Program-made: the position numbers and the translations under genes
In this document: piece after piece, positions 16,078 to 24,174 of the stretch
Position numbering within the stretch: position 1 is the first letter of the stretch
How the letters are laid out: each line of letters opens with the position of its first letter
Notes under the pieces: generated by a model
What the model saw: only the letters and a program-made list of their open reading frames with translations
Database searches by the model: none
What the model was told of the DNA's origin: nothing
Virus record (IMG/VR): IMGVR_UViG_2547132281_000002
Location: 1-25,592 of that record
Source: a virus
Lineage: Duplodnaviria; Heunggongvirae; Uroviricota; Caudoviricetes
Direction: 5' to 3' (one strand)
Length of the DNA stretch: 25,592 nt

Positions 16078-16767
16078 ATGAAAACAACACTCTCAGAAAG
16101 ACTTAAAGAAGCCAGATTAGCGCGAGGCCTTACACAAAAGGCGCTTGGGGATTTGGTCGGGGTTAGCCAGGCTGCTATTCAGAAAATCGAAACAGGGAAA
16201 GCTAATCAAACAACTAAAATCGTGGAGATCGCGAACGCTTTGGGTGTGCGCGCAGAATGGTTATCTTCTGGCGTTGGAAATATGTCAGACAGTACAGTGC
16301 AACCAATACAATCAACTGTCAGCCATTCCAAATACTTCAAGATTGACGTTCTTGATATAGAAGTCAGTGCTGGGCCGGGAGTCATCAACCGTGAGTTTGT
16401 AGAAGTTCTACGCTCGGTTGAGTACTCGTTTGACGATGCTCGTCACATGTTCGATGGTAGGAAGGCGGAAAATATCCGCATCATTAACGTGCGTGGTGAC
16501 AGCATGTCAGGAACGATCGAACCAGGTGATCTGCTGTTCGTTGATATCACAGTTAAATCTTTCGACGGTGATGGTATCTATGCGTTTCTGTACGACGACA
16601 CAGCCCATGTAAAGCGCCTGCAAATGATGAAGGATAAGCTGCTGGTCATCTCTGATAACAAAAGCTACTCACCGTGGGACCCGATCGAGAAAGACGAGAT
16701 GAACCGGGTGTTCATCTTCGGTAAGGTTATTGGGAGCATGCCGCAGACATATAGGAAGCATGGGTAG
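16078..16767 (+). CDS. cI: CI-type prophage repressor: N-terminal HTH (XRE) plus C-terminal LexA-like S24 autopeptidase, 229 aa from the internal ATG
   Basis: MKTTLSERLKEARLARGLTQKALGDLVGVSQAAIQKIETGK... (HTH), then ...INVRGDSMSGTIEPGDLLFVD...HVKRLQ... (Ser/Lys dyad motifs). The ORF track's upstream start at 16012 overlaps the operators. Confidence 0.85.
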   Translation: MKTTLSERLKEARLARGLTQKALGDLVGVSQAAIQKIETGKANQTTKIVEIANALGVRAEWLSSGVGNMSDSTVQPIQSTVSHSKYFKIDVLDIEVSAGPGVINREFVEVLRSVEYSFDDARHMFDGRKAENIRIINVRGDSMSGTIEPGDLLFVDITVKSFDGDGIYAFLYDDTAHVKRLQMMKDKLLVISDNKSYSPWDPIEKDEMNRVFIFGKVIGSMPQTYRKHG

Positions 16768-20914: not shown

Positions 20915-21529
20915 ATGAAAAAATCAACACTAATTTTAGGGCTTACGTTAATTGTCTCATCTCAAATACCATCGGCAATGGCAAAAAATGAATCAAAACT
21001 TTGGGTTGTTGTTGATCGAACGGAAAGACATACCTGCCCTTCAAGTAAATGTGGAGTGGCTGGGAAACTATTTTTCAGGGAAGGCGTAGATTTTCTAGAA
21101 AAAAAAGGTGAATGGGTTCGTATAACTGAGCCATATTCAGCCTCATGTGTGGGAGGGGAAAGCGAATATATTAAAGAAGGTAATAAATCCTGCACAAGAA
21201 AAAACGGAATCGTTAATGGCAAGTTTTCAGAATGGGTTAAACTTAGTGATCTTAGCAGTGAAAGGCCACCAGATCCTGCTGAAAATGCGAGCAGAAATGA
21301 TACCTTAATCAAAGGATCTGATGACTACCGTATATACAAAAAAGAGTTTTCTTCGGCAGCTAGGAAGTTAATAAGTGAAGGTGTCTGCACGGAGAGCGAT
21401 TTTAAGGAAGTTGGAGGGTGGATGGCATCAAGCAATAAGGGTGAAAACATCTATTTCACATATTGCGGAGGAATGACGTTGTCGAACAGAATATATCTAG
21501 ACGTTAAAAGTGGAAAGACTTTTAGATAA
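20915..21529 (+). CDS. Uncharacterised secreted/periplasmic Cys-rich protein, 204 aa (moron)
   Basis: Signal peptide MKKSTLILGLTLIVSSQIPSAMA with predicted cleavage before KNES. At least eight Cys in the mature part and no lipobox. AT-rich, with a good RBS (AAAAGGAAA). No family recognised. Confidence 0.6.
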   Translation: MKKSTLILGLTLIVSSQIPSAMAKNESKLWVVVDRTERHTCPSSKCGVAGKLFFREGVDFLEKKGEWVRITEPYSASCVGGESEYIKEGNKSCTRKNGIVNGKFSEWVKLSDLSSERPPDPAENASRNDTLIKGSDDYRIYKKEFSSAARKLISEGVCTESDFKEVGGWMASSNKGENIYFTYCGGMTLSNRIYLDVKSGKTFR

Positions 21530-21822
21530 TATGATATTACCAATGACAGCATTAATTTAATGCCTCCATAGAATTATCTCTAGGAAGTAAGTATAAGAAA
21601 AGTCCGCACAATGAGCTGCTGCGGGCTTTGTGTTATTCGCCATATTTTATGAAGCAAATACGACACTATAGATAATTAAGCGTTACTGGTTGTCGATTCC
21701 TCACTCATTCCTGCTGATGGCTGTCTTCTTGTATGTGTCATTGAAGGGTAATATCGCGTAAAAAGATACCGGAAGTATCCGCGCCGCCATGATTGTCTTT
21801 CTCCTGATGCAGGAAAAGCAGA

Positions 21823-22161
21823 ATGACTAAATCAGCAGCAGAGCGCAAAGCCGATCAGAGAGCCAAGCAAGCATCATCCGGTATGCGTAAGCTGGAGCTT
21901 GTACTTGATGCTCAGGAAATTGAAATGCTGGAGCGTAACTGAGCCACGCGCCGCTTCAGGCGTGCGCCTTACGAGTTTGGTGAGTACATAGCGTTACTGA
22001 GCCGCCAGGATGATGCACGTGTGCGCTGGCGTATAAAATCGATTAGCAGAAAACGTTGCCGTAAGTGCGGCGAGAGAGTTCCTGTTAATTCATGCCCGTG
22101 TAATGGTGACTCACAATACTGGGTGACCAAAGGCTGGCACGAAACAAAATTAATGATATAA
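21823..22161 (+). pseudogene. 112-codon zinc-ribbon ORF interrupted by one in-frame TGA at codon 40 (21940-21942)
   Basis: MTKSAAERKADQRAKQASSGMRKLELVLDAQEIEMLERN-[TGA]-ATRRFRRAPYEFGEYIALLSRQDDARVRWRIKSISRKRCRKCGERVPVNSCPCNGDSQYWVTKGWHETKLMI. Both halves are in the same frame. Confidence 0.4.
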
Positions 22162-22165
22162 ATCT

Positions 22166-22181
22166 CTGTGACATGTCACGG
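22166..22181. promoter_or_regulatory. Perfect 12-bp palindrome GTGACATGTCAC (within CTGTGACATGTCACGG) immediately upstream of the RBS of the 142-aa gene
   Basis: Palindrome at 22168-22179, GGAGG at 22180-22184, ATG at 22190. The CTG-N10-CGG arrangement is one mismatch from a LexA-box core CTG-N10-CAG. Confidence 0.3.
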
Positions 22182-22189
22182 AGGCGGCA

Positions 22190-22618
22190 ATGAAATTAGA
22201 CCAGCAATATCTAAAAGATCTACTTATCGCATTCGAAAAAACTTATGGCCCTGACACGATGCTTAGTGAACTAGAGGATAATGGCTTTAATAGATATGAC
22301 CAAAATTTTATTTTCCATATGCGATTATTATGTGACTACGAATTAATAGTTAGGGTTGATGGAAAACCTGGGTTCGGTCATATAATGTCCAACGAGTTAG
22401 GGGAAGGTGTTGAATATAGTTGGATCGAAGTACCACTGAGGTTGACAGCAAGAGGGCATGATTTTATTGCTGACTTACGTCAAAAGGAGGTCTGGCAAGC
22501 TATAAAAACAAACTTTAAGGATGAGGGGATTAGTACTCTTATGAGTGTTTCAAAATCACTAGCAAAAGGCTTTGCAAGAAAAAAAATAAAAGATATTACA
22601 GGAATAGATATTGAATAA
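22190..22618 (+). CDS. Uncharacterised 142-aa protein (AT-rich moron with its own RBS and terminator)
   Basis: MKLDQQYLKDLLIAFEKTYGPDTMLSELEDNGFNRYDQNFIFHMRLLCDYELIVRVDGKPGFGHIMSNELGEGVEYSWIEVPLRLTARGHDFIADLRQ.... Strong RBS and a downstream terminator. Family not recognised with confidence. Confidence 0.6.
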   Translation: MKLDQQYLKDLLIAFEKTYGPDTMLSELEDNGFNRYDQNFIFHMRLLCDYELIVRVDGKPGFGHIMSNELGEGVEYSWIEVPLRLTARGHDFIADLRQKEVWQAIKTNFKDEGISTLMSVSKSLAKGFARKKIKDITGIDIE

Positions 22619-22664
22619 TTCTTAGCATAAAGCAACTACTGCCTTTGGTGAAAATTATATCTGA

Positions 22665-22688
22665 ACTCGCTACGGCGAGTTTTTTTTA
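22665..22688 (+). terminator. Rho-independent terminator after the 142-aa gene
   Basis: Stem actcgc/gcgagt with loop tacg followed by tttttttt. Confidence 0.65.
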
Positions 22689-22868
22689 TGGAGATGATAA
22701 ATGCACTTCCGAGTCACAGGTGAATAGAATGGAGAACCATTCAACAGAGTTATCGAAGCCGAGAACATCAGCGACTGCTATGACCACTGGATGCTGTGGG
22801 CGCAGATAGCACATGCAGACGTAACCAATATTCGAATTGAAGAACTGAAAGAACACCAAGCCGCCTGA

Positions 22869-22890
22869 TGGCGGTTTTTTCTTGCGTGTA
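22869..22890 (+). terminator. Rho-independent terminator upstream of xis, in a lambda-derived segment
   Basis: Stem gccgcc/ggcgg with loop tgat followed by tttttt. The surrounding sequence matches the lambda region just upstream of xis from memory. Confidence 0.6.
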
Positions 22891-22907
22891 ATTGCGGAGA
22901 CTTTGCG

Positions 22908-23126
22908 ATGTACTTGACACTTCAGGAGTGGAACGCTCGCCAGCGACGCCCAAGAAGCCTTGAAACAGTTCGTCGATGGGTGCGCGAATGCAGGATATTC
23001 CCTCCTCCGGTTAAGGATGGAAGAGAATATCTGTTCCACGAATCAGCGGTAAAGGTTGACTTAAATCGACCAGTAACAGGTAGCCTTTTGAAGAGGATCA
23101 GAAATGGGAAGAAGGCGAAGTCATGA
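22908..23126 (+). CDS. xis: Excisionase Xis, 72 aa
   Basis: MYLTLQEWNARQRRPRSLETVRRWVRECRIFPPPVKDGREYLFHESAVKVDLNRPVTGSLLKRIRNGKKAKS matches lambda Xis. The 3' end overlaps the int start. Confidence 0.95.
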   Translation: MYLTLQEWNARQRRPRSLETVRRWVRECRIFPPPVKDGREYLFHESAVKVDLNRPVTGSLLKRIRNGKKAKS

Positions 23127-24174
23127 GCGCCGGGATTTACCCCCTAACCTTTATATAAGAAACAATGGATATTACTGCTACAGGGACCCAAGGACGGGTA
23201 AAGAGTTTGGATTAGGCCGAGACAGGCGAATCGCAATCACTGAAGCTATACAGGCCAACATTGAGTTATTTTCAGGACACAAACACAAGCCTCTGACAGC
23301 GAGAATCAACAGTGATAATTCCGTTACGTTACATTCATGGCTTGATCGCTACGAAAAAATCCTGGCCAGCAGAGGAATCAAGCAGAAGACACTCATAAAT
23401 TACATGAGCAAAATTAAAGCAATAAGGAGGGGTCTGCCTGATGCTCCACTTGAAGACATCACCACAAAAGAAATTGCGGCAATGCTCAATGGATACATAG
23501 ACGAGGGCAAGGCGGCGTCAGCCAAGTTAATCAGATCAACACTGAGCGATGCATTCCGAGAGGCAATAGCTGAAGGCCATATAACAACAAACCCTGTCGC
23601 TGCCACTCGCGCAGCAAAATCAGAGGTAAGGAGATCAAGACTTACGGCTGACGAATACCTGAAAATTTATCAAGCAGCAGAATCATCACCATGTTGGCTC
23701 AGACTTGCAATGGAACTGGCTGTTGTTACCGGGCAACGAGTTGGTGATTTATGCGAAATGAAGTGGTCTGATATCGTAGATGGATATCTTTATGTCGAGC
23801 AAAGCAAAACAGGCGTAAAAATTGCCATCCCAACAGCATTGCATGTTGATGCTCTCGGAATATCAATGAAGGAAACACTTGATAAATGCAAAGAGATTCT
23901 TGGCGGAGAAACCATAATTGCATCTACTCGTCGCGAACCGCTTTCATCCGGCACAGTATCAAGGTATTTTATGCGCGCACGAAAAGCATCAGGTCTTTCC
24001 TTCGAAGGGGATCCGCCTACCTTTCACGAGTTGCGCAGTTTGTCTGCAAGACTCTATGAGAAGCAGATAAGCGATAAGTTTGCTCAACATCTTCTCGGGC
24101 ATAAGTCGGACACCATGGCATCACAGTATCGTGATGACAGAGGCAGGGAGTGGGACAAAATTGAAATCAAATAA
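23104..24174 (+). CDS. int: Tyrosine integrase Int, 356 aa
   Basis: MGRRRSHERRDLPPNLYIRNNGYYCYRDPRTGKEFGLGRDRRIAITEAIQANIELFSGHK...HELRSLSARLYEKQISDKFAQHLLGHKSDTMASQYRDDRGREWDKIEIK matches lambda Int. Confidence 0.95.
   Translation: MGRRRSHERRDLPPNLYIRNNGYYCYRDPRTGKEFGLGRDRRIAITEAIQANIELFSGHKHKPLTARINSDNSVTLHSWLDRYEKILASRGIKQKTLINYMSKIKAIRRGLPDAPLEDITTKEIAAMLNGYIDEGKAASAKLIRSTLSDAFREAIAEGHITTNPVAATRAAKSEVRRSRLTADEYLKIYQAAESSPCWLRLAMELAVVTGQRVGDLCEMKWSDIVDGYLYVEQSKTGVKIAIPTALHVDALGISMKETLDKCKEILGGETIIASTRREPLSSGTVSRYFMRARKASGLSFEGDPPTFHELRSLSARLYEKQISDKFAQHLLGHKSDTMASQYRDDRGREWDKIEIK

Follow-up and report, generated by a model that had tools for sequence, protein, structure and literature searches.

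A DUF2513 accessory gene in the ea8.5 slot of a lambda-like prophage and the conserved 12-bp palindrome that accompanies its upstream phrog_536 neighbor

The window analyzed here is a 25,592-nucleotide stretch of DNA from a virus of the Caudoviricetes (IMG/VR record IMGVR_UViG_2547132281_000002, positions 1 to 25,592), and it ends in the att-proximal arm of a prophage of the lambda type that sits at att-lambda, beside the chromosomal gene ybhC. The + strand of the window runs in the direction of lambda's leftward pL operon. On this strand, at the place where lambda carries ea8.5 (alignment with lambda J02459), lies a gene for a 142-residue protein, preceded by a perfect 12-bp palindrome, GTGACATGTCAC, and followed by a terminator-like hairpin. 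An initial annotation of this stretch had described the open reading frame (ORF), the palindrome, a GGAGG Shine-Dalgarno (SD) sequence, the hairpin with its T-run and the low G+C content, all of which are present (Table 1), and had interpreted them as a stand-alone, AT-rich accessory gene, or moron, that replaces ea8.5 beside xis and int, possesses its own terminator and is controlled through the palindrome. The replacement of ea8.5 is borne out by the lambda alignment and by the drop in G+C content, which is 0.31-0.40 across 22100-22700 as opposed to 0.47-0.52 on both flanks. The gene thus combines atypical composition with presence/absence relative to related phages, one of the criteria by which morons are recognized. 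Here, we describe a computational analysis of this gene, of the phrog_536 gene located upstream of it, for which we use the working name C7, and of the palindrome between them.

The 142-residue ORF is a genuine, intact and ordinary phage accessory gene and a member of the DUF2513 family. The initial annotation had recognized no motif in its product and had proposed searches with hidden Markov models; of these, Pfam returns DUF2513 (PF10711) at 42.7 bits against a gathering score of 29.6, with residues 2-115 aligned to positions 1-100 of the 100-position profile, whereas PADLOC-DB 2.0 returns no match at E <= 1 for the protein and its three upstream neighbors. The protein also matches PHROG 585, a family of unknown function (E = 7e-34). 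The match to the DUF2513/PHROG 585 family is full-length, the size is the same (approximately 135-142 residues), and no difference was found. RefSeq annotates the E. coli copies, among the records sampled, as 'DUF2513 domain-containing protein' (e.g. WP_000762731). E. coli PI12 is 100% identical at the DNA level over a 621-bp region, the full-length matches sampled are approximately 97% identical, and the gene is carried by 166 of 5426 complete E. coli genomes. Relatives of about 140 residues are spread through the Enterobacterales and beyond, a profile search yielding 1483 representatives of clusters formed at 50% identity. The gene is under purifying selection: the ratio of nonsynonymous to synonymous substitution rates (dN/dS) is 0.12-0.40 among E. 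coli copies, and against relatives at 75% identity dN is 0.16-0.20, with synonymous sites already saturated.

The AlphaFold2 model of the DUF2513 protein has a mean predicted local distance difference test score (pLDDT) of 92.6 and consists of a winged helix followed by three helices. The modeled winged helix resembles that of MarR proteins, comprising helices 5-17, 25-30 and 38-49 plus a beta wing, and MarR-family repressors such as MarR (5h3r), PecS (8ylh) and BpsR (6pco) compare with the model at template modeling scores of only approximately 0.43 and 12-20% identity. In contrast to these repressors, the protein has an acidic winged-helix core (residues 1-86, net charge -7; isoelectric point of the whole protein 5.4) and no cognate operator has been identified; the family is acidic as well, its members having net charges between -13 and -1 in their first 100 residues. 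Pfam gave no match of the protein to MarR, MarR_2 or HTH_27 at E <= 1, NCBIfam gave no match, and a search of solved structures found none related by sequence. A fold search of BFVD with the model recovered uncharacterized proteins only, and a literature search on DUF2513, PF10711 and the RefSeq accession retrieved nothing relevant. No conserved operon partner was found at distant DUF2513 loci, where the neighbors are heterogeneous and include several small terminases. A conserved, operator-like block upstream of the gene in a second DUF2513 subfamily (L005, L007, L011 and others) proved to be coding sequence from the 3' end of the preceding gene and was rejected as a regulatory element.

Some distant DUF2513 members carry TIR domains fused at their C-terminus. 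The TIR domain of P0140 (278 residues) is of the CAP12/Pycsar type and that of P0240 (407 residues) is a TIR_2 domain; P0202 (378 residues) has a weak DUF4062 match. These fusions hint that DUF2513 relatives may serve as sensors or adaptors in immune proteins, and the occasional joining of the family to TIR effector domains suggests a role in phage-host conflict. The most likely role of the DUF2513 protein would be that of a winged-helix dimer that binds nucleic acid or protein and acts in phage-host or phage-phage conflict.

The region upstream of the DUF2513 gene contains two small ORFs, 21823-21942 and 22021-22161, which constitute one reading frame with a single internal TGA and match phrog_536 at positions 2-40 and 69-114. 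The TGA occupies the codon of Cys40, a residue invariant in 31 homologs (alignment A3). In E. coli-type IMG/VR loci this codon is TGT in 17 cases, TGA in 7 and not assessable in 15, so that the TGA allele marks a sublineage (7 of the 24 assessable related loci). From its reading frame, C7 is most likely a pseudogene in the window. Recoding of the TGA as selenocysteine is considered unlikely, given that TGT stands at this position in many E. coli copies. An intact C7 is found in many E. coli relatives (e.g. L045), and the family has at least 307 homologs. The intact protein begins with MAKSAAERKAAQRARQ, has an arginine-rich N-terminus, is basic (isoelectric point 9.7, net charge +10) and possesses an invariant cysteine cluster (C79, C82, C91 and C93). 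Searches with C7 found no Pfam domain and no structural relative in the PDB by sequence. Its secondary-structure pattern in a monomer model (pLDDT 57) comprises coil at 21-29 and helices at 30-43 and 52-75, and the strand-helix-helix pattern of the sequence suggests a ribbon-helix-helix dimer.

The pair of C7 and DUF2513 genes recurs at other genomic positions at 60-76% identity. In nin regions the order is methyltransferases, C7, DUF2513, DUF1367, a small nuclease-like protein and Q, and a second position of the cassette is directly upstream of the small and large terminase genes. The DUF2513 gene is therefore the distal half of a two-gene cassette and does not stand alone, as had been assumed. 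C7 homologs often directly follow, or overlap, the stop codon of DNA methyltransferase genes (in Klebsiella, ZF40, Yersinia and Salmonella; junctions at L207 2396, L119 2001-2008 and L214 14594-14597), an arrangement that suggests translational coupling of C7 to these genes.

The significance of the palindrome is not apparent from the window alone, which contains eight perfect 12-bp palindromes against 6.9 +/- 2.6 expected from Markov simulations. We judge it to be real because it is conserved where synonymous sites of the DUF2513 gene are saturated and the flanking sequence differs. In diverged cassettes, whose DUF2513 products are 60-76% identical, the 12-mer shows at most one change, its flanking bases differ, and it stands 22-24 nucleotides (nt) before the DUF2513 ATG; in all E. 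coli copies examined it is perfectly kept. The suggestion that a dimeric regulator then unnamed might bind here has gained from this conservation across diverged loci, which gives the site a functional appearance.

The 12-mer is equally well conserved in phages that have no DUF2513 gene. In PAS61, phiV10, epsilon15, Tyrion and ZF40, and in Salmonella and Citrobacter prophages, it overlaps or follows the stop codon of C7; DUF2513 is absent from the phages among these and, in Citrobacter L005, distant. In phiV10-type phages the C7 stop lies inside the palindrome (gtgTGAcatgtcac) and the small terminase gene is next; in the prophages of Salmonella and Citrobacter, palindrome and C7 stop overlap, with a terminator about 25 nt further on. 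Where the two genes are separated, the palindrome stays at the C7 stop with the DUF2513 gene 92 (L106), 516 (L103) or 3758 nt (L005) away, and no copy was found at DUF2513 loci lacking C7. Among the complete genomes carrying a C7 homolog, copies were tabulated (Table 1) against a chance expectation of approximately 0.002 per 40-kb genome. The epsilon15/phiV10-like phages keep three orthologous intergenic 12-mer positions while the flanks diverge; ZF40, a lambdoid myovirus, has the 12-mer on both sides of its immunity region and after its C7 homolog gp22; and in Yersinia phage vB_YenM_42.18, whose C7 homolog is 36% identical, a pair of sites lies in a cargo hotspot. The epsilon15 record is richly annotated and marks terminators, IHF sites and the operators of the repressor (ATTACC-N4-5-GGTAAT), yet it has no entry for the 12-mer, and the literature searched contains no occurrence of the 12-mer string. 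No late-gene regulator of epsilon15-like phages is named in the records examined or the literature searched. By its distribution, the palindrome belongs with the upstream C7 gene and not with the DUF2513 gene, whose private operator it had been taken to be.

Table 1. Features of the prophage arm in the window and copies of the 12-mer in complete genomes carrying a C7 homolog
Feature	Record	Position	Strand	Remark
C7 pseudogene, most likely (phrog_536)	window	21823-22161	+	intact form 112 aa, basic, Cys-rich
In-frame TGA at invariant Cys40 codon of C7	window	21940-21942	+	
Candidate sigma-70 extended -10 promoter	window	22134-22162	+	inside last C7 codons
12-bp perfect palindrome GTGACATGTCAC	window	22168-22179		conserved; likely site of the C7 module
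Shine-Dalgarno GGAGG	window	22180-22184	+	5 nt upstream of ATG
DUF2513 gene	window	22190-22618	+	142 aa, ATG start; winged helix and C-terminal helices predicted
Intrinsic terminator-like hairpin	window	22663-22682, T-run to 22690	+	predicted lambda t4
Small conserved lambda-backbone ORF	window	22701-22868	+	55 codons, between t4 and xis
xis	window	22908-23126	+	Pfam Exc, E = 3.9e-41
int, lambda-type	window	23104-24174	+	context
ybhC, chromosomal gene	window	from 24309		3' of int
12-mer, three perfect copies	PAS61 (L209)	12343, 14608, 32674		
12-mer, two perfect and one one-mismatch copy	phiV10 (L211)	2262, 19493, 39101		
12-mer, three perfect copies	epsilon15 (L212)	2142, 19517, 39612		
12-mer, three perfect copies	Tyrion (L213)	2702, 20377, 41755		orthologous intergenic sites
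12-mer, three perfect copies	Pectobacterium myovirus ZF40 (L214)	5125, 7622, 14944		
12-mer, one perfect and one one-mismatch copy	P2-like Yersinia phage vB_YenM_42.18 (L215)	11675, 11708		33 bp apart
12-mer, one copy each	Chlobot; window			

The hairpin downstream of the DUF2513 gene folds as RNA at -12.9 kcal/mol (z = -3.97). Similarity to lambda resumes at approximately 22652, upstream of the hairpin, and runs through the small ORF into xis, so the terminator does not belong to the inserted unit and is part of the lambda backbone. It corresponds to the predicted lambda terminator t4, which follows ea8.5, and the next hairpin, at 22858-22877, to the predicted terminator t5 (Bloch et al. 2014, Table 4; PMC4195576). 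The t4 junction is common to approximately 2000 complete E. coli genomes, and the gene thus lacks the terminator of its own with which it had been credited. The DUF2513 gene shares slot, strand and downstream terminator t4 with lambda ea8.5 and the accessory genes of the exo-xis region, a region that is non-essential and whose role is poorly understood (PMC4195576, introduction). Comparison with hhalign showed Ea8.5 to be unrelated to DUF2513 and to C7.

A candidate extended -10 promoter for the DUF2513 gene lies within the last codons of C7. Its parts are a -35-like CTGGCA (22134-22139), a 17-bp spacer, TG (22154-22155) and a -10 TATAAA (22157-22162), and its predicted start point, at about 22168-22170, falls on the first bases of the palindrome. 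CTGGCA is located in invariant Gly-Trp-His codons of C7, and TATAAA represents the last sense codon and the stop. In all lineages in which the stop precedes the palindrome, C7 has NTA, encoding Ile, Val or Leu, as its last sense codon and TAA or TAG as its stop. Diverged loci therefore retain TATAA or TATAG at 3-5 nt upstream of the palindrome, despite synonymous saturation elsewhere. A stricter promoter scan did not report the candidate.

With a little better than even confidence, we favor as the best explanation of the whole a DUF2513 gene that is part of a cassette, a palindrome that is the site of the C7 module, and two routes of expression. The DUF2513 gene would have entered the slot as the downstream member of a cassette consisting of C7, the palindrome and DUF2513. 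During lytic growth it would be expressed by N-antiterminated read-through from pL, a route proposed because of the position and strand of the gene and established lambda biology. By lambda biology, N-modified polymerase would ignore t4; transcription by RNA polymerase that is not antiterminated would end at the t4 hairpin. In the lysogen we infer a second route, from the extended -10 promoter. A C7 dimer bound to the palindrome would cover +1 and repress this second route; in the window, with C7 broken by the TGA at Cys40, the DUF2513 gene would be derepressed. C7 is the only gene identified as common to the motif-bearing phages, which represent four backbones, and the simplest reading is therefore that C7 recognizes the motif; the palindrome is most likely, as a prediction from these sequences, a C7 binding site. 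The difference in charge between the basic C7 and the acidic winged-helix core of the DUF2513 protein also counts for this reading.

Several observations weigh against this explanation. The comparison that singled out C7 was non-exhaustive, and three loci (L087, L095 and L109) contain C7 and DUF2513 and lack the palindrome. The AlphaFold2 monomer model of C7 is unusable for a fold search at its pLDDT, and no C7 homolog with a solved structure was found, such that its ribbon-helix-helix or zinc-ribbon nature is read from the sequence pattern. Promoter matches comparable to the candidate number 3 on both strands of the window against 2.6 expected; with no excess over chance, only its position speaks for the candidate. 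Finally, the perfect copies in epsilon15-like phages, read in the direction of transcription, lie between a stop codon and an intrinsic terminator and not at an obvious promoter, indicating that repression at +1 may not be the ancestral function.

Other proteins have to be considered as ligands of the palindrome. The initial annotation had pointed out that the palindrome and its flanks are one mismatch from a LexA-box core and had proposed that the gene is SOS-inducible. The likeness exists: the 16-mer from 22166, CTGTGACATGTCACGG, is a 16-bp dyad that differs from CTGT-N8-ACAG by one mismatch, shares its symmetry center with the palindrome and matches 7 of the 8 core positions. However, the window has 17 such one-mismatch matches where 7.9 +/- 2.8 are expected. 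The mismatch falls in the CAG triplet (the site reads CTG...CGG), the spacer TGACATGTCA is not AT-rich, and with a position weight matrix (PWM) trained on known LexA boxes, which themselves score 15.9 bits or more, the site scores -12.9 bits and ranks 3795 of 25573 positions. Orthologous sites vary at the outer positions (GCGT, TCGT and ATAT on the left, ACGG, ACAG and ACGA on the right) and are constant in the inner 12 bp, and boxes of real appearance in related loci look quite different (CTGTAATTATATACAG). Match frequency, PWM score and the variation at LexA-contact positions rule the palindrome out as a LexA box, leaving SOS control of the gene extremely improbable. The DUF2513 winged-helix dimer itself might bind the palindrome as an autoregulatory operator, given that its model is MarR-like, that palindromes overlapping the promoter of their own gene are common targets of MarR-type proteins, and that the site abuts the ribosome-binding site and the candidate start point. 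We consider this improbable: at least six phage genomes without a DUF2513 gene conserve the 12-mer, often more than once per genome, and it never accompanies homologs that have no upstream C7 and stays at the C7 stop when the gene lies far off (L103 and L005, at the distances given above); moreover, the winged-helix core is acidic.

The palindrome might instead act as RNA, either as a hairpin read by the arginine-rich N-terminus of C7 in the manner of nut/boxB and controlling terminator read-through or, in the E. coli version, as a longer hairpin hiding the SD sequence. The epsilon15-like phages and the Salmonella and Citrobacter prophages always have the order stop, palindrome and, 0-40 nt on, terminator, which is closer to cro-nutR-tR1 than to an operator, and the MAKSAAERKAAQRARQ start of C7 fits such a role. 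In the window CUCUGUGA-CAUG-UCACGGAG can pair over 8 bp including GGAG, which would hide the SD in read-through RNA. Against this, the folding energy of the isolated 12-mer is no better than -1.2 kcal/mol (z about 0), its 12 positions are fixed, including those of the would-be loop, with no compensatory changes seen, and Rfam has no match in 21500-23200. The SD-pairing extension is confined to the E. coli lineage and the z-score of the 56-nt fold, -1.83, falls short of significance, and sequestration of the SD was rejected on these grounds; action of the element as RNA is on the whole unlikely. Comparably unlikely is that the palindrome is a non-functional passenger marking the end of a segment from a phiV10-like phage, with DUF2513 expressed in the pL operon only. 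Positions 21823-22154 are approximately 90% identical to phiV10-type phages and the similarity stops just before the palindrome, Chlobot and the window are single-copy, C7 is dead in the window, and some E. coli strains have IS1 in the palindrome without having lost the gene. Against this reading stands the perfect preservation of the palindrome in all the E. coli copies examined as well as in cassettes diverged to 60-76% identity, always 22-24 nt before the ATG.

A few observations concern the surroundings of these elements. In E. coli L1_E925 (L120, NZ_LR883050, 2253-3015) and in L064, IS1 is inserted into the palindrome and the remaining prophage has been lost; the remnant retains an intact DUF2513 gene, the small ORF, xis and int beside ybhC. 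In the window, the small ORF downstream of t4 carries TAG at 22725-22727, a codon that reads TGG in lambda, in Chlobot and in 31 of 33 related loci. As this is the second nonsense mutation within 800 bp, the sequence suggests that the prophage arm is decaying. The window has a second AT-rich accessory gene at 20915-21529 (G+C 0.34-0.41), encoding a 204-residue protein with a signal-like N-terminus that matches phrog_8310, of unknown function (E = 2.9e-134), and weakly SH3_3. Good LexA-box-like sequences are present in Klebsiella and Salmonella prophages, CTGTAATTATATACAG at approximately 2880-2900 of L207 and CTGGATATTTATACAG at approximately 3000-3020 of L202, where they precede a conserved 63-residue gene downstream of C7; the window has no equivalent of this box and gene. 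The only perfect CTGT-N8-ACAG of the window, at 16588-16603 (CTGTACGACGACACAG), has a GC-rich spacer, has a low PWM score (8.3 bits) and is probably a chance match.

The gene itself is one more uncharacterized DUF2513 protein in the slot of dispensable lambda genes, and the idea of SOS control can be dropped. What extends beyond this locus is a 12-bp motif that four mutually unrelated backbones of temperate phages preserve perfectly and that occurs together with a single family of small basic proteins, forming a testable pair of regulator and site. More tentatively, C7 may be a sequence-specific regulator with GTGACATGTCAC as its site, which would mark the ends of transcription units in epsilon15/phiV10-like phages and stand in front of cargo genes such as DUF2513 on lambda-like, P2-like and ZF40-like backbones. 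The two together may then be a portable module for the control of termination or of the expression of cargo, with DUF2513 as one of its regulated cargoes. As a C7 site, the motif is undescribed in the literature searched and the phage records examined. The pair of C7 and motif offers a handle on the control of portable cargo genes near int/xis, in nin regions and beside terminase genes, and the rare fusions of DUF2513 to TIR domains give reason to look at phage defence or counter-defence.

The closest parallels to this arrangement that we can draw are in lambda. Unlike Q or N, to which C7 has no sequence relationship, C7 has as its presumed site a perfect palindrome. The layout is shared: as with lambda Q and the Q-binding element at pR', and with cro-nutR-tR1, a regulator gene is followed by its own target site, which in the case of C7 would lie within 0-9 nt after the gene, often with a terminator next.

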